From: Schaalia odontolytica
GTDB taxonomy: Bacteria > Actinomycetota > Actinomycetes > Actinomycetales > Actinomycetaceae
Direction: 5' to 3'
Assembly (NCBI RefSeq): GCF_005696695.1
Contig: NZ_CP040006.1
Location: 570,001 to 602,000 of the forward strand
Length of the DNA: 32,000 bases
The position numbers were made by a program, and so were the translations under genes. Below the pieces are notes generated by a model, which did no database searches, had not been told where the DNA came from, and saw only the letters and a program-made list of their open reading frames with translations. Shown piece by piece: positions 3,846 through 23,244 of the stretch (position 1 is its first letter; each line of letters begins with the position of its first letter).

Positions 3846-3861
3846 CGAGGCCTAGGCCTCG
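3846..3861. repeat. 16-bp perfect palindrome overlapping the stop codon of the 3852..4397 gene
   Basis: CGAGGCCTAGGCCTCG is its own reverse complement. It may act as a minus-strand terminator, and it reuses the GAGGCC/GGCCTC core of the hairpin family. Confidence 0.3.
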
Positions 3862-4397
3862 GGCGAGGGGATTGCTGCGGCGGGCTGGCGTGCGGCATCC
3901 CGTGCGCGCAGGTGCATGTAGAGCTTGTAGGACGAGACCAAGTCGGCCACGGGGAAGAACTGCATGGGGATGTGGAGCTTTGTCGCCTTCGGGTTGCTGA
4001 GGCCCTGGTTGCGGGCGCGAATCGCGGCGGTGATGCCGTAGCCCGATGAGATGAGGAGGCTCAGGTAGGCCAGGCCAAGCCATTCGTAGATGAAGCGTAA
4101 TGACTCGAAGAAGTCGTGGGGGGAGAGGAATAAGTAGACCAGTACATATGAGTACTGCAGAAGGGGCAAGCTGAATGGGAGAAGGACAATTTTCAGCAGT
4201 AGGCTCCGCAATGCCAGTGCGCGCGGGCTCTCATCACGGCACAGCCAGAAGAGAGAGATCAGATTTGCCGCTGCGGCAACCGCAAACAAGGCGAGCCACA
4301 TGTTCCAGGTCAATCCGAATCCAATGCGGTAGCTCTGGTCGCTATACGCGGCTATGACAAGGAGGATGGGGGCTACGATGCGGAGAACCTTGGACAT
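3852..4397 (-). CDS. Unknown polytopic membrane protein, paralog A
   Basis: 181 aa with about 5 hydrophobic helices in an AT-shifted region. Shares blocks with the 4474..5022 product: APILLVIAAY, ANLISLFWLCRDESPRALAL..LLLKIVLLP, SSGYGITAA, DLVSS. Confidence 0.75.
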   Translation of the reverse strand: MSKVLRIVAPILLVIAAYSDQSYRIGFGLTWNMWLALFAVAAAANLISLFWLCRDESPRALALRSLLLKIVLLPFSLPLLQYSYVLVYLFLSPHDFFESLRFIYEWLGLAYLSLLISSGYGITAAIRARNQGLSNPKATKLHIPMQFFPVADLVSSYKLYMHLRARDAARQPAAAIPSPEA

Positions 4398-4423
4398 GTG
4401 GCGCCTACTTTCTGTCGACGTCT

Positions 4424-4460
4424 CGCCTGTGTCGTGAATATATCATCATGGCCACAGGCG
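4424..4460 (-). repeat. Intercistronic inverted repeat between the two paralogous membrane-protein genes
   Basis: CGCCTGTG (4424-4431) pairs with CACAGGCG (4453-4460) around a 21-nt AT-rich loop, inside the 76-nt gap between the two genes. Confidence 0.3.
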
Positions 4461-4473
4461 GGGCGTCCGGCGC

Positions 4474-5022
4474 TCAGGATTCCGAGGCGGCGGCCGAGGC
4501 GGGCTTATTCGCCCGGTGCAGAAGGATGCATAGCCAGATGCTGGAGATGAGATCGGTAAACGGTAGGCAGTGCATCGTGATGTACCTGCGCTTTGAGGAG
4601 GTGTTGAGGAGTCCCTCCGTGTTGGCGTGATGCGCTGCGGCTATGCCGTACTGAGAACTCGTCAGCAGTAGTGCGTACATGCCGCAAATGGGCGTGAACA
4701 GGTAGCCGATGGCTAGCACGAGGTACGGGGGAGCTATGAGGCATGCGGCAAGGAATGCTGCGAAGGGGAGAAAACCGATGTAGAGGGGGAGGAGGCCTAG
4801 CTTGAGGAGTAGCCCCCACAGGGCGAGCGAGCGTGCACTGGCGTCGCGCTGAAGCCATAGGGTGCTCACGAGGTTCGCCAGGCCAGCGATCAGGATGGCG
4901 ATGATCCACACGGCGTCGCCGGTGCCCGCGAGGCTGTGCTGGAGCATGAGCTCGGCGCCACCGCCGATGTAAGCCGCGAGAATCAAAAGGATGGGTGCGG
5001 TGACACGTGCGATGGTGGACAT
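4474..5022 (-). CDS. Unknown polytopic membrane protein, paralog B
   Basis: 182 aa with blocks APILLILAAY, ANLVSTLWLQRDASARSLAL..LLLKLGLLP, SSQYGIAAA, DLISS. GAGGGG Shine-Dalgarno lies 6 nt before ATG 5022. The overlapping 4505..5035 ORF is a frame artefact. Confidence 0.75.
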   Translation of the reverse strand: MSTIARVTAPILLILAAYIGGGAELMLQHSLAGTGDAVWIIAILIAGLANLVSTLWLQRDASARSLALWGLLLKLGLLPLYIGFLPFAAFLAACLIAPPYLVLAIGYLFTPICGMYALLLTSSQYGIAAAHHANTEGLLNTSSKRRYITMHCLPFTDLISSIWLCILLHRANKPASAAASES

Positions 5023-5111
5023 GTGTACCCCTCATTCTGTTTGAAAGTTTGTAATAGTTGTGACTATGGTACCTCCTCTCGTTGAAGGCGAAAGCGGCAG
5101 TTATGCCACGC

Positions 5112-5146
5112 TTGATCTGAGGCTAGATTCTGGCCATAATTATGGC
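5112..5146 (+). promoter_or_regulatory. phd-doc promoter with palindromic operator candidate
   Basis: TTGATC (5112-5117), 17-nt spacer, CATAAT (5135-5140). Perfect 14-bp palindrome GCCATAATTATGGC (5133-5146) covers the -10 element. Confidence 0.5.
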
Positions 5147-5165
5147 TAAAGGAGATGGGAGTAGC

Positions 5166-5378
5166 ATGTCGACACTGACTATGGGACTCGCTGAGGCGAA
5201 GAATAACTTTTCGCGGGTGACAGCAGAGGTGAACAGGACGGGGAAGCCTGTCACGATCCTGAAGAACAATAGGCCTTGGGTCGTTATTCAGCCTGCGCAG
5301 CAGTCTGAGAGCGCGGTCGATGTCGCTGTCGATTTCATGGATGCCTACGCGGACGTGTTTGAAGAGCTCGCGAAGTGA
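5166..5378 (+). CDS. phd: Phd/YefM-type antitoxin
   Basis: MSTLTMGLAEAKNNFSRVTAEVNRTGKPVTILKNNRPWVVIQP matches the Phd/YefM N-terminal fold pattern. Its stop overlaps the doc start (GTGA). ATG 5142 lies inside the promoter palindrome, so ATG 5166, preceded by GGGAG, is preferred. Confidence 0.8.
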   Translation: MSTLTMGLAEAKNNFSRVTAEVNRTGKPVTILKNNRPWVVIQPAQQSESAVDVAVDFMDAYADVFEELAK

Positions 5379-5758
5379 CCGCTTTCGCGTTTTCCCGGGA
5401 CGATGTGTGTGCCATCCATTCGGCTACGATTGCTCGCTTCGGTGGTCTTGATGGCGTGCGAGACGAGGGAATGTTGGCCTCGGCTCTTGCTCAGCCGTTC
5501 CAGACGTTTGGGGGCGAGGAGCTCTATCCCAGTGCGGTCGAGAAAGCGTGTCGGTACGCTGTTGGGATCATTTCGGGGCATCCCTTCCTGGACGGAAATA
5601 AACGAACCGGTGCCGCTCTGCTAGGCACGTATCTCAGGATGTGCGGTCTTGGTTTCACGCCCGACCATGCGGAGTTCCTTTCGGCCATGCTGGGTGTAGC
5701 TGATGGGTCGATGGGATACGAGGAACTCGTGGACTGGGTGAGGATCAACGTGGGGTAA
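5375..5758 (+). CDS. doc: Doc (death-on-curing) Fic-fold toxin
   Basis: 127 aa with the Doc/Fic motif HPFLDGNKRTG. 4-nt GTGA overlap with the upstream antitoxin gene. Confidence 0.9.
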   Translation: MTAFAFSRDDVCAIHSATIARFGGLDGVRDEGMLASALAQPFQTFGGEELYPSAVEKACRYAVGIISGHPFLDGNKRTGAALLGTYLRMCGLGFTPDHAEFLSAMLGVADGSMGYEELVDWVRINVG

Positions 5759-5857
5759 TTGCTTTCGGGTTTTGTGTTGGTGATTCAGTGGCGGAGTATT
5801 CCGTGGAGTAGGGTTCGTCGTAGCGAAACGGCGGCCCCGAATCAAGGAGGATGACAC

Positions 5858-6727
5858 GTGGATCTGCTCGAATACATGCGCTCACAAAACGACATGACGC
5901 GCCAGGAATGGGAGCGCACCTTTGAGGAAGAGGCTAGGGAGCTTCTCGTTCTGCTCGCTGGAAGCAGTGGAGCTGGAAAGAGGAACGGCTTCTGGGAGGC
6001 CGCGCACTCCTATCTGGCGTACGTGGACTGGGAGACTGGCGCCCTATGTGCGGATGATGGTCGGCTGGTCTACCCAGTCAGCGATGAGGACAATGCCGCT
6101 GGCAACGTCTTGGGCCGCTTCCGTGACGAGGAGATCTACCGCGTCACGGCTCGCAAGAAGATCCCGCAAGAGCTCCCCGAGGGCATGAGCGCCTCCGCGC
6201 AGAACCGCCTCCTGATCGTGGAGGTCCTCGAAGAGAATCCTCCGTGCCCCGCGTTGGACGAGGTCCTGGCTGAGTATCGCAGGCCGGTAGTTCTCAAGGA
6301 TGAGGAGTTGGGTGAGCTGTCCCTCGACAAGGACCTCGACACGTTCGAGGGAGGTGTCTCGTGGCGGGGTGAGGACATCAACATCTCTCTGGAGGTTGAT
6401 TCGTCCAGCGAAGACACGTGGACCGCAGCCGTGGCCGCCATGAAGCAGATGGTGACCGATCAGGACCGGTGGGATCGCGACATGCGAGCGTTCGCCGCGC
6501 GAGAGCTGACCGGACTCGCGTGCGACTGGCGCGAGTCTGCCGACGAGGAGGTCCCCGAGATTACGGAAGAGAGCTTCGCACAGCGATTAGGTCTCACCAG
6601 TATCGCCATGGATCCGGACGGTTCATTTTCCGCATACTTCGATGATGACGATATGTTCTTCGGCCACTGCGTCGTGGTGTACGGAACCCTGGCCGATGGG
6701 GTGGCCTCGGCGGTGATGGCGGGTTAA
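5858..6727 (+). CDS. Acidic cytoplasmic protein, C-terminal half DUF2262-like by memory; function unknown
   Basis: GTG start 7 nt after AAGGAGG. 289 aa and strongly acidic. The C-terminal pattern (ITEESFAQRLGLTSIAMDPDGSFSAYFDDDDMFFGHCVVVYGTL.DG) resembles the DUF2262 family as I recall it. Confidence 0.6.
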   Translation: MDLLEYMRSQNDMTRQEWERTFEEEARELLVLLAGSSGAGKRNGFWEAAHSYLAYVDWETGALCADDGRLVYPVSDEDNAAGNVLGRFRDEEIYRVTARKKIPQELPEGMSASAQNRLLIVEVLEENPPCPALDEVLAEYRRPVVLKDEELGELSLDKDLDTFEGGVSWRGEDINISLEVDSSSEDTWTAAVAAMKQMVTDQDRWDRDMRAFAARELTGLACDWRESADEEVPEITEESFAQRLGLTSIAMDPDGSFSAYFDDDDMFFGHCVVVYGTLADGVASAVMAG

Positions 6728-6738
6728 GTGTCCTGCGC

Positions 6739-6773
6739 GCTGCTGCCGAAACAGTTGGTGCTTCGGCAGCAGC
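6739..6773. terminator. Bidirectional terminator hairpin between convergent genes
   Basis: Perfect 12-bp stem GCTGCTGCCGAA / TTCGGCAGCAGC with an 11-nt loop, lying between the stops at 6727 (+) and 6844 (-). Confidence 0.65.
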
Positions 6774-6843
6774 ACTCAGGTATACGGGTAGGGGAGTGGA
6801 GCCAGTTCTGGCCCTCACAAGCCTAAGATCGCTGCGCGCGCTG

Positions 6844-7689
6844 TCAGTTTTTGTGTGCGGTGATCGCAAACTGAAGGGGCAGGCGCTCTGGTTTGTCGCG
6901 AAGGTGCCAACCTCCAGCGGAATCCTGTTCCATGAGTTCGGGCCACGGACACCACGCCGCGCGCGGTGTCTCCTCAAGCTCATCGATCACCAAACCCGCG
7001 TTGATGAGAGCAGTAACGATTTGTCCAAGGGAGTGATTCCACTGGTGATTTGTCGTGTGAGTAATCCGCGGGGCATCGGGGCAATCCACGTAGCTTGAAT
7101 CGTCATTCCATGTCATCGGAGCATCCTGCTCGAAGTAGGGTGCCTCAATCTTTAGCCCGTCGGAAATATCCTCCCCAATTGTCATGAACATCGGGTGGTC
7201 ATCGCGGATGAAGAAGGTGCCGCCCGGCTTGAGCAGGGAAGCGATGACTTGTGCCCATCGGGCGATATCGGGCAGCCAGCATAGGACACCGATCGAGGTG
7301 TACACCAGATCGAAGGTGCCGGACACTGCTTGGCGCGCGTCGTACACGTTTGCGTGAACAAACTCCACGTCAGCGCCCGCGCGGTCGGCGATGTTGCGCG
7401 CGTGGGCAAGTGAGGCCTCGGACAGGTCGAGGCCGATGACACGCGAGGCCCCGCGGCGCGCAAAGCCGATTGTGTCCGTTCCGACGTGGCACTGCAGGTG
7501 GATGACATCTTTGCTGGTGAGATCGCCGAAGCGTTCGATATCTTGGGCCAGTTCGGTGCTAATGGCTGTCGGGTCCTCGAGAAGGCGCTGGTAGTCGTAG
7601 TAGTTGCCAGCCATGTGCAGCTCGGCGCGGTCGTCCCAGTTGTGTTCATTGTCAGAAAACCACTGTGTGAGGCTGTTCGTTTCGTTCAT
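6844..7689 (-). CDS. Class I SAM-dependent methyltransferase
   Basis: Motif I-like VIGLDLSEASL, plus FDLVYTSIGVLCWLPD and LLKPGGTFF. Start placed at ATG 7689 (MNETNSLTQWFSDNEHNWDDRAELH). The 30-aa extension to 7779 looks non-coding. No clear Shine-Dalgarno, so the start is uncertain. Confidence 0.8.
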   Translation of the reverse strand: MNETNSLTQWFSDNEHNWDDRAELHMAGNYYDYQRLLEDPTAISTELAQDIERFGDLTSKDVIHLQCHVGTDTIGFARRGASRVIGLDLSEASLAHARNIADRAGADVEFVHANVYDARQAVSGTFDLVYTSIGVLCWLPDIARWAQVIASLLKPGGTFFIRDDHPMFMTIGEDISDGLKIEAPYFEQDAPMTWNDDSSYVDCPDAPRITHTTNHQWNHSLGQIVTALINAGLVIDELEETPRAAWCPWPELMEQDSAGGWHLRDKPERLPLQFAITAHKN

Positions 7690-7901
7690 TTCGTTATTGT
7701 ATGCAGGTGGAATGTTGGGGAGGCGTGCTCCTCCGTGCCTCGGACCTATCGAGTCGATGCAGGAGGCGTCAGTGGGCATAGAGCGTGAGAGGGAACGCTA
7801 AGGGAGGATCTGATAGCGAGGCATACCCCGCCAAGCAGGGCGGGCCTCGTCAATGTCTGATGAGTTGCTGGTGGCAGTGGTGCGATCCCTAGTGCCCTCT
7901 G

Positions 7902-14601: not shown

Positions 14602-16815
14602 GTGCCAGGTATGGATACCTACGACGCGATCATGCTGCTGTCCTACGGTGGCCCGGATGGCCCGGACGACGTCCTGCCGTTCATGCGCAACGCGACGCGC
14701 GGTCGCGGAATCCCCGACGAACGCCTGCTTCAGGTCGCCGCTCACTACAAGCGCTTCGGCGGCGTCTCGCCCATTAACGCCTGTAATCAGCGCCTGATCG
14801 CCGACCTGTCCGCGGAACTCGCCAGGCGTGGGCACGATATCCCCGTCGGGTGGGGAAACCGCAACTGGCACCCCTTCGTCGCCGAAGGCCTCGATGAGCT
14901 CGCCCAGGCGGGCGCCCGCCGCATCCTCGTCCTGCCTACCTCCGCCTACGCCTCGTACTCGGGGTGTCGCCAGTACCGCGAAGACCTCGCCGAGGCCGCG
15001 GAGGCCCTGCACGACAAGTGGGGGACGATCGAACTGGGCGTTGAGGACAGCGCCGACAATCCCGACGCCGACATCATCCTGGACAAGGTCCGCCCCTACT
15101 ATTCGACCCCCGGCATGGCGAGCGCGCAGATCGCGTCCGTCCAGCGTGCGTGGGAGGCCCTCGCTGCGCGAGGCGTCGATACCTCCGGGATTCGCCTGAT
15201 CTTCGTTACCCACTCCATCCCCGTGAGCATGGAGGCGGGGTCCTCGCCCTTCCCGTTCCATCCCTCGATCGACGAGGCCGTGGCGGCCTCGGGCGGTCGC
15301 GCCGAGCAGCAGGGGAGCGAGGCCTCGTCGCCGGCGGGAACCCCGGCCACTGAAATCAGCTACGTTGCCCAGCACCACGCCCTTATCCAAGCGATCATGC
15401 CCGAGCTGCGCCGCGTTCTTGGCCGCGAGGATCTGGGTTACGACCTCGTGTATTGCTCGCGGTCCGGGCCCCCGCAGGCCCGCTGGCTCGAACCCGATAT
15501 CAACGATTTCCTTGAGGAGATCGCGGCCGACACAGCGCCTCCGACCGGCACCGTCGTCGTCCCCATCGGTTTCATCTGCGACCACATGGAGGTCGTCTAC
15601 GACCTCGACACCGAGGCGAAGGAGACCGCCGCGCGCCTGGGGATCCCCTACGAGCGTGCCGACACCGTCGCGACGGATCCGGCCTTCGTGTCCTCCCTGG
15701 TCGACGTGCTCGAAGAGCGCGCGGCCCAGGCGCGAGGCGAGAATCCCTCGCCCGTCACCGTGACCGGCACCGGCCCCTTCCACACCGTCTGCCCGAGCGA
15801 CTGCTGCCTCTCTCCGGCACGCCCTGGCCACCCCTCACCCGCCGCTGTGAGCGCCCACCCCGGCGCCGCCCCTCATTCTTCCGGCGCGCCCGCCCGAGCC
15901 GCCGGTCAATCAGCCACAACTCAGGAGGACTCCATGTCTACCCCGCATCCCCACGCCGTCGTGCCGCCCGAGCAGAACCCGGAAAACCCGGGACATCCCG
16001 CAGGAGTGCCGGACCGCGTCGGTGAGCACGCCGCACGCCACCAGGCCCGCCACGCGGGCACCGAGGCGACGCCCCACTCGCACGCCGCTCACGCCCGCGT
16101 CACCGACCCGCGCGACGCGACGGACGTCGACTTCGACGAGGTCAACAACAAGCAGCACTACGCCCTCTACTCCGTGTTCGCGCTCGGTGAGTCCCTGCCC
16201 GCCGACGACGACGAGCGCGGCCGCATCGTCGCCGAATCCCTGGACTACGTGAAGGGCGCGGGCGCAGAAATCCGCGGCTTCTACGACGTCTCGGGCTTCC
16301 GTGCCGAGGCCGACCTGATGGTGTGGTGGCTCGACGACGACCCGCAGGTCCTCCAGGACGTCTACCACCGCCTGCGCGCGTCGGCGCTCGGCAAGTTCCT
16401 GGATCCGGTGTGGTCCTGCATGGGCCTGCACACCCCCGCCGAGTTCAACAAGCGCCACATTCCCGCCTGCTTCGGCGGCGTCGCGCCCCGCGACTGGGCG
16501 ATGGTCTACCCCTTCGTGCGCTCCTACGACTGGTACCTCAAGGCCCCCGAAGAGCGCTCCCGCATCATGGCCGAACACGGCCGCAACGGCTTCGCACAGT
16601 ACCCGGACGTCAAGGGCTCGACCCTCTCCGCCTTCGGCTTCTCCGACTACGAGTGGGTGCTCGCGTTCGAGGCCGACAGCCTGGACCGCCTGGAGGGCGT
16701 CATGCACGCCCAGCGCTACACCGAGGCGCGCCTCTACGTGCGCGAGGACACCCCGTTCTTCACGGGTCCGCGCGTGAGCCTCGGCGAGTGGGCGGAGCGC
16801 CAGCCCCGCGCATAA
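14602..16815 (+). CDS. hemH-hemQ: Fusion protein: coproporphyrin ferrochelatase (HemH/CpfC) + His/Pro/Ala-rich linker + coproheme decarboxylase (HemQ/ChdC)
   Basis: N-terminal part: DAIMLLSYGGPDGPDDVLPFM, WHPF, FVTHSIP, FICDHMEVVYDLD, Cys cluster VCPSDCC. C-terminal part: HemQ-like YALYSVFAL...VYPFVRSYDWYL...RIMAEHG. No stop codon between them. GTG 14602 lies 6 nt after GAAGGAGGA; ATG 14611 is an alternative start. Confidence 0.88.
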   Translation: MPGMDTYDAIMLLSYGGPDGPDDVLPFMRNATRGRGIPDERLLQVAAHYKRFGGVSPINACNQRLIADLSAELARRGHDIPVGWGNRNWHPFVAEGLDELAQAGARRILVLPTSAYASYSGCRQYREDLAEAAEALHDKWGTIELGVEDSADNPDADIILDKVRPYYSTPGMASAQIASVQRAWEALAARGVDTSGIRLIFVTHSIPVSMEAGSSPFPFHPSIDEAVAASGGRAEQQGSEASSPAGTPATEISYVAQHHALIQAIMPELRRVLGREDLGYDLVYCSRSGPPQARWLEPDINDFLEEIAADTAPPTGTVVVPIGFICDHMEVVYDLDTEAKETAARLGIPYERADTVATDPAFVSSLVDVLEERAAQARGENPSPVTVTGTGPFHTVCPSDCCLSPARPGHPSPAAVSAHPGAAPHSSGAPARAAGQSATTQEDSMSTPHPHAVVPPEQNPENPGHPAGVPDRVGEHAARHQARHAGTEATPHSHAAHARVTDPRDATDVDFDEVNNKQHYALYSVFALGESLPADDDERGRIVAESLDYVKGAGAEIRGFYDVSGFRAEADLMVWWLDDDPQVLQDVYHRLRASALGKFLDPVWSCMGLHTPAEFNKRHIPACFGGVAPRDWAMVYPFVRSYDWYLKAPEERSRIMAEHGRNGFAQYPDVKGSTLSAFGFSDYEWVLAFEADSLDRLEGVMHAQRYTEARLYVREDTPFFTGPRVSLGEWAERQPRA
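15923..15936 (+). promoter_or_regulatory. In-frame internal ribosome-binding site plus ATG in the fusion linker
   Basis: AGGAGG (15923-15928), 5 nt, then ATG 15934 (MSTPHPH...), in frame with the fusion ORF. It could yield a free-standing HemQ, or be a relic of an ancestral two-gene arrangement. Confidence 0.3.
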
Positions 16816-18032: not shown

Positions 18033-18163
18033 TCCCTCCAATTTCGCATGCAATTCCCGCGCTAGTCTTTCGAGATTTGAATCGTGATCGTTGGGATTCC
18101 AAGGTTTATTGGGCATCGGCTAAACGGATGCTAGGGGAATTGCATGCGAAATGTGGGAGAGGG
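18033..18163. repeat. Long imperfect inverted repeat with 18-bp perfect core in the esterase / orphan-gene intergenic region
   Basis: ATTTCGCATGCAATTCCC (18041-18058) pairs with GGGAATTGCATGCGAAAT (18135-18152), with flanking partial complementarity (TCCCTCC / GGGAGAGGG, CTAG / CTAG). The 76-nt spacer is AT-richer. A third, shortened copy GAATTGCATGGGAG lies at 18246-18259. Confidence 0.6.
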
Positions 18164-18264
18164 ACAGAGCAGGGGAGGAGGGAAGTGTGGAGTGAGAGTC
18201 GATACGTGTGGATGGTTATCGTGTTAGTCTCCCGGTATCTATCGTGAATTGCATGGGAGCAAGC

Positions 18265-20631
18265 ATGACCCGGGACCTGATCCGTCGTGGCGACAATGAG
18301 CGTCTGGTGTTTCCTGAAACCCCTCTTCCCCAGCTGACGGACGTTCGGGTTGAGGGGACATACGAGGTCAGCCTGAGTGAGGGCAGCGAGCCGGACGAAA
18401 CCGCTGCGTTCGAACTCGATCCGAACGCCTCGCCCGCACAGTTCAGGGACTATCTCTTCGCTGCGGCAAGCGGCATTCTCATGGGAGCACTCGGCTCCCT
18501 GTGGCAGAAAGACATCAACCTGACGGAGGCTCGCAAGTTTGGCGAGGAGAAAATTCAGAAAATCGTGATCGGCGCGGCCCAGCGCGCGGGCCTCGACAAG
18601 GAACACCCAAACATCGCAGACGCGATCCGCTTCCTCGAAAAGAGATTCCCATCCGTGGGGGATAAGCTCACCGCAGCATTCGGTGGCGGGCTCCAGCATC
18701 ACCTCCGCGACTTCTCGCACCACCCCTCGCCCGTGGGACTCGTGTGCTCCCTCCTCATGCAATTCACTGGCAAGGGGTTTGGAACCAAGACAGACGGCAC
18801 TTTCGCAATCTTCGACCTGCCTGCCGACGCTATGAAGGACGGATTGCTTGTTGGGCGCAACGTTCCAGAAAAGATTCTCTATGGCACCGTTAAATGGCTC
18901 TTTCATCTCATCAGCGACATGGCCGGCTCGAGCTCGACCCCCGGCGCGGGCACCGGAATCCCCGGGCCTCTCCTATCATTCCTCAAGGAGGCCTCGTCCC
19001 TGCCATTCTTCCGTGACTTGTCCATCGGTTATGAGGGCAAGATGCGGACACTGTCGCAGTGGATTTCCAAAGCATTCAACGGCACCCTATTGAAGGATGA
19101 GGACGGCAATCCCCTACGCTTCGATCTGCGGACGGAGGTTGGCTTGGCGGAGCAAATCCTGACGCAGGTTCCCGCTGTTCTCGCGAATGAGTGCATTGTT
19201 CGTGGCTTCTACACGATCACTCGGTTCGTCGACGAGTTGAAGCGCTGCGACGTGTCCAGCGTCAAGGATCTGGCGCGCATCAATCCCTCGCGATTCCTGC
19301 CTCTCAACAGCCGTGCGCTCACGCGCATGCTGACCGTTGCCTCGGGTTCCTTCGTGGTCGTCAACTCGGGCATTGCAGCCGTGCGCGCGGTGGTGGAAGG
19401 CACTGCCAGTGGTGGGGTGGGGGCGGTTCCCCTGTTCTTCATGCGCCTCAACTACGCTGGGATTGGCCGTTTTGCTTTCGCCCTTCGGGCCGACAGCTCC
19501 TACATCTACGAGGATGTGGAGGCCTGGTGGGAGCAGCGTCAGAAGAGTGAAAAGGGTGCAGAAGTCGCCGTCTATGCACCGCTAGGGCAGGACGTGCAGC
19601 GCGTGCTGGATTCGCTTCGCATGGTCTGGCTCGAGGATGACTGTCAACGTGAGAAAAAGGAGGACAAACGCGCCCGCAAGGAAATCCAGATCGGCGCGTG
19701 GAAGCGCAGGCAAGAAATTACCGCTGATGCGGGCCAGGGCAGCTACTTTCTGGAGTCCGCCGAGGGCTACCGTGAGCTTCGGGGCATTTGTTCGGGAGAG
19801 GGTGGGGAGCTAGTCCGCCTGGCCATCGCCCAGAACCTGCTGGGCTACCAGCCCTACGCTGCCGAACGTGGCCTCTCGCTGTCCCAGACATGGCTGACCG
19901 ATGTCTTCGTGGCTGAGCAAGATGTCATCGATGCGGCCTTACTTAAGCGTCTGAAGGGTGCGCAGCAGTCATATGACCGTTGGCTGTCGGGCACCTATAC
20001 GAAGTGGGCGCTGCGCGGTGCTGCGGCTGTGGCTGCAACCGTCGCCACGGGTGGGGCGGCCGCTGCTGCGGCACCCGTGATTGCTACGGTTCTTGCGGGC
20101 GGGGCCGTGACTGGGTTGAGTGGTGCGGCGCTGACGAGTGCGAGCCTCGCGTGGGTAGGTGGTGGTTCCCTTGCTGCGGGAGGCCTCGGTATGGCCGGTG
20201 GTACCGCCATCATTACGGGCGGCGGGGCAGTTATCGGGCTGACGACTGCAGCCAGCGGTGCGACGCTGGTGGGAGTCCTGAGCAAGGACTATGCCGAACA
20301 GGTGAAGCAAGGGTGTGCTGAGTGGCTCGCCCAGTGTTCGGTGCTTCTTGAGGAAAAACCGGCGCAGGCACTGAGGGTCATCGAGGAATCGAAGGCGCGC
20401 TTGGAGCGCGCGATCGACGCGGATAATCGGACGATTGACGCCTTGAAGGGAACGAAAGAGAAAGATCAGAAGAAGCTGAGGCAAAGCCTGGAAAAGGGGC
20501 GTTCTCACCTCGGCTACGCCGTGGCCGAGCTGGGCAGGCTAGAAAAGAAAGTGCGTGAGGCTGCTGTCGAGCGCGGTGATCTCGCGCCGAGCGGGAGCGT
20601 TGATATCGCCCGCGTTCCAGAGTCGGACTAG
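18265..20631 (+). CDS. Large orphan protein: N-terminal unknown domain, Gly/Ala-rich glycine-zipper membrane module, C-terminal coiled coil
   Basis: Uninterrupted ORF 18208..20631. ATG 18265 follows GGGAG by 5 nt; 18208 and 18253 are alternative starts. Gly/Ala zipper region is about 20017-20280 (GAAAVAATVATGGAAAAAAPVIATVLAGGAVTGLSGAAL...GGGAVIGLTTAASGATLVG). K/E-rich heptad-like tail follows. I recognise no family. Confidence 0.8.
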   Translation: MTRDLIRRGDNERLVFPETPLPQLTDVRVEGTYEVSLSEGSEPDETAAFELDPNASPAQFRDYLFAAASGILMGALGSLWQKDINLTEARKFGEEKIQKIVIGAAQRAGLDKEHPNIADAIRFLEKRFPSVGDKLTAAFGGGLQHHLRDFSHHPSPVGLVCSLLMQFTGKGFGTKTDGTFAIFDLPADAMKDGLLVGRNVPEKILYGTVKWLFHLISDMAGSSSTPGAGTGIPGPLLSFLKEASSLPFFRDLSIGYEGKMRTLSQWISKAFNGTLLKDEDGNPLRFDLRTEVGLAEQILTQVPAVLANECIVRGFYTITRFVDELKRCDVSSVKDLARINPSRFLPLNSRALTRMLTVASGSFVVVNSGIAAVRAVVEGTASGGVGAVPLFFMRLNYAGIGRFAFALRADSSYIYEDVEAWWEQRQKSEKGAEVAVYAPLGQDVQRVLDSLRMVWLEDDCQREKKEDKRARKEIQIGAWKRRQEITADAGQGSYFLESAEGYRELRGICSGEGGELVRLAIAQNLLGYQPYAAERGLSLSQTWLTDVFVAEQDVIDAALLKRLKGAQQSYDRWLSGTYTKWALRGAAAVAATVATGGAAAAAAPVIATVLAGGAVTGLSGAALTSASLAWVGGGSLAAGGLGMAGGTAIITGGGAVIGLTTAASGATLVGVLSKDYAEQVKQGCAEWLAQCSVLLEEKPAQALRVIEESKARLERAIDADNRTIDALKGTKEKDQKKLRQSLEKGRSHLGYAVAELGRLEKKVREAAVERGDLAPSGSVDIARVPESD

Positions 20632-20670
20632 TGTGAGCTGTCAGTCGCCGGGGGTTGCGCGCTCGCGGGG

Positions 20671-22693: not shown

Positions 22694-22963
22694 ATGGCAA
22701 CTGTGAATTTTAGTGTGCGCATGGATGCAGATCTTAAGCGTGAGGTTGAAGCGATCTACGCGGAGCTTGGTATGAATCTGACGTCCGCTGTGAACGCTTT
22801 CCTCCGTCAGAGCGTGCGGGTGGGTGGAATGCCCTTCGATCTGCGTCTGAATGAGCAGCAGCGTGAGACTGTCTTGGCGATGTTGGAAGCGGAGCAGCTG
22901 GCCTCTGATCCAGGTGTTGAGGCCATGGATGTTGAAGACGCTCTGGCGGAGTTGAAGCGCTAA
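22694..22963 (+). CDS. dinJ: RelB/DinJ-family antitoxin
   Basis: MATVNFSVRMDADLKREVEAIYAELGMNLTSAVNAFLRQSV matches the DinJ ribbon-helix-helix pattern. TAATG overlap with the toxin gene. Confidence 0.9.
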   Translation: MATVNFSVRMDADLKREVEAIYAELGMNLTSAVNAFLRQSVRVGGMPFDLRLNEQQRETVLAMLEAEQLASDPGVEAMDVEDALAELKR

Positions 22964-23244
22964 TGACTCTGAAAGTCGTTTGGACAACGAAGTTTAAGCG
23001 CGACTACAAGCGTGTGATGAAGCGCGGGCTCGACATCAATCGTCTGGATCAAGTTATCCGAACGTTGGCAGCTGGCGAGGTACTCGCTATCTCGCACCGA
23101 GATCATGCTCTCGGGGGTGACTGGCGGGGGCATCGTGAGTGTCATGTTCAGCCTGATTGGCTGCTGATCTATTACGTGGATGGCGAGCGCCTGGTTTTGA
23201 CCCTCACGCGGACGGGAACCCACGCAGATCTGTTTGGCCTCTAA
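22963..23244 (+). CDS. yafQ: YafQ-family (RelE-fold) mRNA interferase toxin
   Basis: 93 aa: KFKRDYKRVMKRG, HALGGDWRGHRECHVQPDWLLIY, TRTGTHADLF. Confidence 0.9.
   Translation: MTLKVVWTTKFKRDYKRVMKRGLDINRLDQVIRTLAAGEVLAISHRDHALGGDWRGHRECHVQPDWLLIYYVDGERLVLTLTRTGTHADLFGL

Follow-up and report, generated by a model that had tools for sequence, protein, structure and literature searches.

The window analysed here is a 32,000-nucleotide stretch of Schaalia odontolytica DNA (contig NZ_CP040006.1, positions 570,001 to 602,000). It contains a gene whose 788-residue product very probably fuses, judging by sequence comparison, a BnzB-like module to a PDC-M09A-like module. We read this protein as a single-chain, TerB-less, membrane-acting defence protein of the Bunzi/PDC-M09 type, with a probability of about 0.55. 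The system is not new in kind; what is new is an unannotated single-gene fusion without TerB that links Bunzi to a PADLOC candidate. Bunzi, which consists of BnzA and BnzB, is among the systems reported to protect against phage (Millman et al. 2022). BnzA is a TerB protein with predicted transmembrane (TM) helices, and for the system as a whole the authors proposed “membrane surveillance” (Millman et al. 2022). PDC-M09 is one of 145 candidates from a “guilt-by-embedding” screen in BREX (bacteriophage exclusion), DISARM (defence island system associated with restriction-modification) and type I restriction-modification (R-M) loci (Payne et al. 2024). Our literature search found no mechanistic work on BnzB and no occurrence of PDC-M09 by name.

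A single chain that joins two modules

Residues 61-243 of the protein match the BnzB profile of PADLOC (E=1.6e-32) and residues 584-744 match two PDC-M09A profiles of the same collection (E=8.2e-14 and 4.2e-6). The open reading frame (ORF) and the parts of its product are listed below with positions in the window; pLDDT is the predicted local distance difference test score of AlphaFold2.

18265-20631, + strand: the ORF, ATG at 18265 to stop at 20629-20631, 788 residues, intact
18265-18426, + strand: acidic, poorly conserved N-terminus, predicted disordered (residues 1-54, pLDDT 26-31, consensus mostly “x”)
18427-19554, + strand: conserved BnzB-like core domain (residues 55-430), mostly alpha-helical with three small beta-hairpins
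18691-18729, + strand: invariant His/Arg/Asp cluster LQHHLRDFSHHPS (residues 143-155), a candidate ligand or metal site
19555-19989, + strand: helical connector (residues 431-575; AlphaFold2 helices H442-575, pLDDT mostly 80-93)
20017-20280, + strand: uncharged, Gly/Ala-rich hydrophobic stretch (residues 585-672), homologous to the PDC-M09A core
20290-20592, + strand: three long helices forming a coiled-coil-like hairpin (residues 676-776), part of the PDC-M09A-like module

The match to BnzB covers only positions 163-352 of the 504 in the profile. A bona fide Bunzi pair of Lactococcus lactis p267C was recovered with the same searches (BnzA 4e-125, BnzB 2.7e-150), its BnzB matching the profile over the full length. 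Because the match of our protein is partial, we regard its N-terminal module as a homologous core domain and not as a full-length BnzB orthologue. By BLASTP the protein shares 27% identity over 231 residues with the true BnzB of p267C (E=9e-17) and 29% over 373 residues with a BnzB-like protein of L. plantarum (E=2e-25). At the level of sequence the N-terminal globular domain of about 375 residues is homologous to BnzB.

The two modules lie side by side on L. plantarum plasmid p83-18.3 (locus L100, 4923-7476), where a BnzB-like gene (3e-100) is followed 2 nt further on by a PDC-M09A gene (2e-70). Our protein aligns to both genes of this adjacent pair and is therefore, by the Rosetta-stone argument, a single-chain fusion of the two. 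Its similarity to the L. plantarum PDC-M09A protein amounts to 33% over 136 residues (E=1e-4), with motif LSGAALTSASLAWVGGGSLAAGGLGMAGGTA aligning to LSGAAFTNAALAWLGGGALATGGGGMAAGSA, and an hhalign comparison of the family profile with the same protein gave a probability of 97.8% (E=9.5e-13). The C-terminal Gly/Ala stretch and coiled coil are, on these alignments, homologous to PDC-M09A. All 60 long-form relatives tested match both the BnzB and the PDC-M09A profiles, so that fused modules are, by profile matching, the norm in this large family.

Relatives also exist in other arrangements. One protein of 1285 residues (P0209) holds BnzB-like and BnzA-like parts in one chain. Short forms of about 520 residues (Sporosarcina, Anaerocolumna, Aquibacillus) are translationally coupled to a downstream coiled-coil protein with one C-terminal TM helix. 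Homology of our C-terminal module to this tail-anchored partner was considered and dropped, hhalign giving a probability of 0.1%. Macro or microbial PARG domains are found at the N- or C-terminus of four long forms (P0125, P0273, P0130 and P0147), and C. symbiosum has a separate DUF6508-Macro gene two genes downstream of the homologue (12442-13374 in L007/L008). Such domains in relatives may mean that the signal or substrate of the family is related to ADP-ribose.

The earlier note on this DNA had called the protein an orphan of no known family, a description that the PADLOC matches and thousands of homologues overturn. We found 3400 homologues in a 90%-clustered database; 2720 representatives of 50% clusters match the protein, 350 of them at E<1e-30. 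Family members at this level come from oral and gut Actinomycetota and Bacillota. The nearest relatives, at 63-98% identity, are from Schaalia (in records named odontolytica, georgiae and “Actinomyces sp. ICM47”); a second tier at 44-48% comprises Collinsella and other Coriobacteriia, and more distant ones occur in Clostridia (C. symbiosum, Oscillospiraceae, Roseburia), Mogibacterium and Arcanobacterium. Among the records seen, homologues are named only “hypothetical protein” or bear a spurious coiled-coil label. No significant match to the protein came from Pfam, NCBIfam or PHROGs scans and none from the PDB, searched by sequence and with two family profiles; the profile check that the earlier note had proposed thus returned no characterised housekeeping family. 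The fused form was not found by tblastn of the window protein in phage and plasmid collections, and its homologues are rare in viral contigs (5 IMG/VR loci); plasmid relatives were retrieved only when a short-form relative served as query. The homologue in Actinomyces bouchesdurhonensis (10001-11623 in L019) matches residues 1-541 only, at 79% identity, although the contig runs on, and may be a truncated or decayed copy without the Gly/Ala and coiled-coil module. What emerges is a large family, labelled “hypothetical” throughout and built on a confidently predicted domain without a solved structural relative.

The BnzB-like domain and its invariant residues

The domain is modelled with high confidence. 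AlphaFold2 of residues 55-430 alone (90 sequences) gave a pLDDT of 95.4 and a predicted template-modelling score (pTM) of 0.87; for the full-length protein (48-sequence alignment) pLDDT was mostly 80-96 over residues 55-575. Foldseek found no convincing structural neighbour, either for the N-terminal domain model of pLDDT 95 against the PDB (best E=0.2, template-modelling score at most 0.2) or for the full-length model against the PDB and BFVD (best E 0.08-0.3 across searches, score likewise at most 0.2). We dismissed the weak top matches (G-protein-coupled receptors, transporters, tape-measure proteins) as generic helical ones. Going by these models, the BnzB-like domain is a fold without a solved relative in the PDB.

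Several features of this half had been picked out in the earlier note. The acidic N-terminus of about 60 residues is there, with a net charge of -8 over residues 1-60. A hydrophobic helix is present at residues 63-80 (YLFAAASGILMGALGSLW) but is not TM in character (Kyte-Doolittle below 1.4, Hessa dG, the apparent free energy of membrane insertion, above 4); we rejected it as a membrane helix, since in the models it is a high-confidence, well-packed core helix of the N-terminal domain. The His cluster is both real and invariant: H145, H146, L147, R148, D149, H152 and H153 do not vary in 90 long and short forms. Further invariant positions across long and short forms are D62, D133, H214, S217, D218, D287, R289, E291 and N308. 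A Gly-rich loop, GxGTGIPGP (residues 227-235), is conserved and makes up, with the His cluster, H214, S217 and D218, the most conserved polar positions. True BnzB retains H145, H146, H152, H214, S217 and D218, and the L. plantarum BnzB-like protein retains H145, H146 and H152. This pattern of invariant residues suggests a ligand site, a metal site or an active site; the His cluster may, as first proposed, bind metal. The connector that follows (residues 431-575) is the most variable folded part, with the highest nonsynonymous rate (dN) among the regions.

The same residues lend themselves to a different explanation, namely that the protein is a membrane-tethered enzyme or exclusion factor that acts without abortive infection and has the BnzB-like domain as its effector. 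That domain would then be a new-fold, possibly metal-dependent hydrolase or ligand module built on the HH..D..HH and H..SD motifs and the Gly-rich loop. The Gly/Ala segment would only anchor it, and the protein, while leaving the cell alive, would block phage DNA entry or modify a substrate that belongs to the envelope or is related to ADP-ribose. The invariant His/Asp/Ser/Glu/Arg set and the GxGTGIPGP loop do resemble an active or ligand site, the Macro or microbial PARG domains fused in relatives speak for ADP-ribose chemistry or signalling, and the known partners are all membrane-associated with none obviously pore-forming. Yet Pfam, NCBIfam, the PDB and Foldseek gave no similarity to a known enzyme fold or family, and the Gly/Ala segment, the most constrained part of the protein, is conserved beyond the need of a passive anchor. 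We consider a non-abortive enzyme or exclusion factor rather unlikely.

The Gly/Ala-rich stretch and the membrane

The Gly/Ala-rich stretch of about 88 residues that had been noticed at 20017-20280 is indeed found at residues 585-672. It consists of 31% Ala and 24% Gly and has no charged residue over 88-89 positions. It had also been credited with the small-xxx-small periodicity of glycine zippers, which did not survive testing: the number of small-xxx-small-xxx-small triplets (17) is that expected from composition alone (17.1 +/- 3.2 in 5000 shuffles of the Gly/Ala segment itself). The stretch contains no GxxxGxxxG motif, and no Pfam Gly-zipper family matches the protein at E<=1. Like glycine-zipper membrane proteins it is a Gly/Ala-rich, uncharged and moderately hydrophobic segment; unlike them it lacks GxxxGxxxG and has its glycines arranged as GG and GGG doublets and triplets about 7 residues apart.

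Kyte-Doolittle maxima of the stretch (19-residue windows) reach 1.64-1.77, above the usual cut-off of 1.6, and 37 of 60 family members have values of at least 1.6 there. The BnzA segments drawn as TM helices by Millman et al. have Hessa dG values of +1.9 and +3.2, similar to those of our stretch. The tail anchors of the short-form partners are far more hydrophobic (dG -1.6 to +0.7). Many G, A and L positions in the stretch are invariant and the ratio of nonsynonymous to synonymous substitution rates (dN/dS) is about 0.10, the lowest of the protein, indicating a specifically constrained element and not a linker. We lean towards the view that it inserts in or associates with the membrane. Its hydrophobicity profile would fit marginal or inducible insertion, as in amphitropic and pore-forming proteins, better than a constitutive TM helix.

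The stretch is followed by the K/E-rich C-terminal helices that had been described as a coiled coil (AlphaFold2 helices H676-697, H699-726 and H733-770, pLDDT 74-90). They are a probable oligomerisation element.

Genomic neighbourhoods of the relatives

A defence-like character had been suggested for the gene at the outset, and it finds support in the BnzB and PDC-M09A matches and in the neighbourhoods of relatives, which are restriction-rich or mobile elements. In Paratractidigestivibacter the homologue directly follows hsdM-hsdS-hsdR, a type I R-M operon. In Collinsella/Coriobacteriaceae the homologue lies no more than 5 genes away from type I R-M, a PDC-M26A-like gene or a GmrSD-like type IV enzyme in 57 of 70 loci, and the Coriobacteriaceae island places a DEDDh exonuclease and a PDC-S01-type ATPase upstream of the homologue. 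This exonuclease (244 residues; PADLOC DEDDh / PDC-S48-like) lies 5' of the homologue, with the same orientation, in 66 of the 70 Collinsella loci (L023-L095) and is usually accompanied by an 84-residue ORF; neither has an equivalent in the window. Relatives in C. symbiosum and on another contig travel as cargo of relaxase/recombinase elements. The features expected of an accessory defence gene, that is variable presence, mobility and defence co-location, can all be seen in the family, in only a few truly independent contexts.

Instead of anti-phage immunity the gene could serve mobile elements or interbacterial conflict, as a weapon or an addiction module; it might for example encode a membrane-damaging toxin directed at competitors, or provide integrative elements with entry exclusion or stabilisation. 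Carriage by relaxase/recombinase elements would be in accordance with such a role. So would the position of the Mogibacterium copy among SMI1_KNR4, DUF4304 and DUF1963 genes, families typical of polymorphic-toxin immunity islands, and the WapI and SIMPL genes near the C. symbiosum copy. The protein itself argues otherwise: its N-terminus is acidic and disordered, with no evident signal peptide, LXG/WXG or other secretion-type sequence. Neither is there a conserved adjacent small gene that could confer immunity. A small upstream partner was considered, since ORFs of 48 residues lie 5' of the C. symbiosum and Mogibacterium copies, and was rejected as the two are mutually unrelated and nothing comparable is present in the window. 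No mobile-element gene adjoins the Schaalia copy. We regard a role in conflict or addiction as unlikely.

A strain-variable insertion in Schaalia

In the window the gene lies between an esterase gene on the - strand and a uracil-DNA glycosylase (UDG)-family gene. By means of the flanking esterase we fetched 80 metagenomic loci. Among the 77 syntenic loci the gene is found between esterase and UDG in 18, and in the other 59 esterase and UDG adjoin directly; where the esterase is at least 95% identical, 8 loci are occupied and 8 empty. When empty sites were aligned to the window (blastn of L103, L107, L110 and L117), homology ended at about 18155-18157 and resumed at 20631-20632. The breaks at about 18156 and 20631 thus define an insert of about 2.47 kb, made up of leader and ORF:

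18157-20631, + strand: accessory insertion of about 2.47 kb (108-nt leader and ORF), its 3' end coinciding with the stop codon
18157-18264, + strand: insert-specific leader of 108 nt, its boundary taken from the empty-site comparison
18254-18258, + strand: Shine-Dalgarno-like GGGAG, 6 nt 5' of the ATG

The same comparison showed neither flanking repeats nor a mobility gene at the Schaalia insertion. A promoter scan of the leader returned 0 sigma-70 consensus sites. An alternative GTG start at 18208 would add 19 residues; homologues share the Met at 18265. A 266-residue antisense ORF at 18106-18906 was rejected as a shadow of the true frame, because its G+C content at third codon positions (GC3, 0.62) is below that at first positions (GC1, 0.69).

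Composition sets the gene apart from its surroundings, as the earlier note had stated on the strength of two 60-nt G+C counts (34/60 and 41/60), both of which are exact. Its G+C content is 0.612 and its GC3 0.711; in the esterase GC3 is 0.842, in UDG 0.869 and in the hemH/Q fusion 0.874 (0.84-0.89 for the flanking genes with the lyase included). Its synonymous-codon log-likelihood of -1.146 is undercut in the window only by a RelB/YafQ pair. The proposal that the gene was acquired horizontally thus agrees both with atypical codon usage and with an insertion missing from most syntenic loci, and the comparison across relatives that had been recommended shows that it is not a syntenic core gene. 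It is, as first reported, the largest gene of the window, its ORF being the longest in the 32,000 nt. It was rightly described as self-contained: the window holds no partner ORF, and the copy in an Oscillospiraceae genome also stands alone.

Alleles of the gene are 76-89% identical at the protein level (mostly about 80%), whereas the flanking esterase, UDG and hemH/Q genes are 84-99% identical, a difference suggesting that recombination has replaced alleles at a fixed site. Measured against Schaalia alleles the dN/dS of the gene is 0.12-0.20. As far as these comparisons go, the gene is a horizontally moving, strain-variable cassette under purifying selection.

These data also bear on the possibility of a housekeeping or stress-response membrane protein that senses envelope stress or maintains the membrane and has no more than a domain in common with BnzB. 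TerB-type systems were originally described as stress and tellurite-resistance genes, the neighbours in Schaalia and Oscillospiraceae are housekeeping genes and the gene is under purifying selection, all of which would be in keeping with such a function. That 59 of the 77 syntenic Schaalia loci lack the gene, among them half of the closest strains, is however hard to reconcile with it. So are the atypical codon usage, the patchy phylogenetic distribution with neighbourhoods that differ by lineage and the deep allelic divergence between near-identical flanks. A housekeeping function seems to us very unlikely.

Other features of the window

The intergenic region between esterase and UDG contains a perfect 18-nt inverted repeat, ATTTCGCATGCAATTCCC / GGGAATTGCATGCGAAAT, at 18041-18058 and 18135-18152 (76 nt apart), with a third, partial copy at 18246-18258. 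We discarded it as a terminal repeat of the insert; empty sites retain it and it therefore belongs to the native locus. Its arms covary across strains (GCATGCAATT with AATTGCATGC as against GCACGTAATT with AATTACGTGC, by eye in about 10 of 25 aligned loci), which suggests a conserved hairpin or paired operator. Rfam gave no match in the intergenic region, and the long-range pairing of the arms was not called by RNAalifold, for which the alignment was ragged.

The RelB antitoxin / YafQ toxin pair lies at 22694-23244 (GC3 0.60-0.62), between a methyltransferase and a beta-eliminating lyase, and is missing from the otherwise syntenic locus L001. At about 11138-13111 in L002-L004 an AAA_21 ATPase and RloB pair sits between UDG and an RF-1/ArfB-like gene, a spot that is uninterrupted in the window. 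Because other Schaalia strains carry this pair, the few kb around our gene form a small hotspot for accessory and defence-type insertions. A further stretch at 3852-7800, with low GC3 (0.69-0.77), holds two ORFs without Pfam match, a DUF7021-DUF2262 protein and a methyltransferase, and is probably another acquired segment. The second-largest gene of the window, at 14608-16815, encodes a ferrochelatase-chlorite dismutase-like fusion (HemH-HemQ type) with a long low-complexity linker, an arrangement ordinary for Actinomycetota.

Proposed action and its weak points

Taken together our results point to a membrane-acting defence protein, for which the following course of action can be proposed. The protein would sit at the cytoplasmic membrane, or be driven into it, via the Gly/Ala segment and would oligomerise through its C-terminal helices. 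Sensing, regulation or catalysis would fall to the BnzB-like domain, which bears the Gly-rich loop and the invariant His/Asp/Ser cluster. Attack by a phage or another mobile element could then release or rearrange the membrane module, and the freed module would compromise membrane integrity, so that infection is aborted or a membrane-dependent step blocked. For a defence role as such we see the odds as slightly favourable; abortive permeabilisation of the membrane, as the specific mechanism, is a possibility that we would sooner doubt than endorse.

Several observations weigh against this interpretation. The Gly/Ala stretch has positive Hessa dG values of +2.2 and +2.6, the median across the family stands at +2.55 with only 6 of 60 members below +1, and pLDDT falls to about 25 over residues 578-674. 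Homology to BnzB is limited to the core (profile positions 163-352), and no TerB/BnzA match was obtained in the ORF or in ten neighbouring window proteins. On the defence side, a lactococcal homologue of Bunzi failed to protect against the phages tried, and PDC-M09 is a PADLOC candidate only, as are all PDCs (Payne et al. 2024). The 70 Collinsella loci represent one island seen repeatedly and are not independent observations, while in Schaalia and one Oscillospiraceae genome the immediate neighbours are housekeeping genes. The fused form, finally, has no PHROGs, phage or plasmid match and occurs on only 5 IMG/VR contigs.

We may speculate further, and with some doubt, about a broad “Bunzi superfamily” of membrane-based immune effectors, overlooked until now, whose constant part would be the cytosolic BnzB-like domain, a sensor or enzyme module of new fold, and whose membrane partners would be interchangeable. 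These would be the TerB-TM protein BnzA, the Gly/Ala-plus-coiled-coil protein PDC-M09A and tail-anchored coiled coils, sometimes joined by Macro/PARG sensors. The fused form of Schaalia and Clostridia would then be a minimal single-protein system in which sensing, transduction and a membrane-disrupting element of non-canonical kind, GG-punctuated and no glycine zipper, can be dissected together. If the PDC-M09 rule of PADLOC requires separate genes, rule-based tools would miss single-gene forms and count too few defence systems in oral and gut Actinomycetota and Clostridia. With 788 residues and a confidently modelled domain, the protein offers a tractable entry to infection sensing and membrane action of the Bunzi type.

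Comparison with known systems

Membrane effectors of signalling defence include the TM effectors of CBASS (cyclic-oligonucleotide-based anti-phage signalling systems) and the Macro-TM protein ThsA of type II Thoeris. Our protein resembles these in concept, as a sensor or ligand domain fused to a membrane-disrupting segment; it differs in that no similarity of sequence or structure was detected, no signal-producing partner gene is present and it has no Macro domain.

The closest relative of its N-terminal module is the corresponding domain of the short-form two-gene family (42-47% identical). There too a BnzB-like module is coupled to a membrane-bound coiled-coil partner, which is however a separate gene with a classical hydrophobic tail anchor.

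With Bunzi the protein shares the BnzB-homologous domain, including the HH...H and H..SD motifs, and the association of a BnzB-type module with a hydrophobic, Gly/Ala-rich segment that leads into helical or coiled-coil sequence. BnzA itself has, at residues 300-360 or so, an uncharged Gly/Ala stretch of about 60 residues followed by helices, with dG values similar to those of our protein. Bunzi is however encoded by two genes and ours by one, without a TerB domain. Homology of the C-terminal module to BnzA was considered and set aside because hhalign of the family against BnzA reached only 28% probability; we therefore call the membrane module analogous, and not demonstrably homologous, to BnzA.

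PDC-M09 has a homologous C-terminal module, and on L. plantarum plasmids the same two modules are adjacent. The differences are that PDC-M09A is a separate gene whereas here one polypeptide joins the modules through a helical connector of about 145 residues, and that the split L. plantarum proteins are only about 30% identical to ours. The fusion thereby links Bunzi, a validated system, to the candidate PDC-M09. It provides Rosetta-stone evidence for a physical partnership between a BnzB-type domain and a Gly/Ala-rich membrane module, a partnership that does not need TerB.

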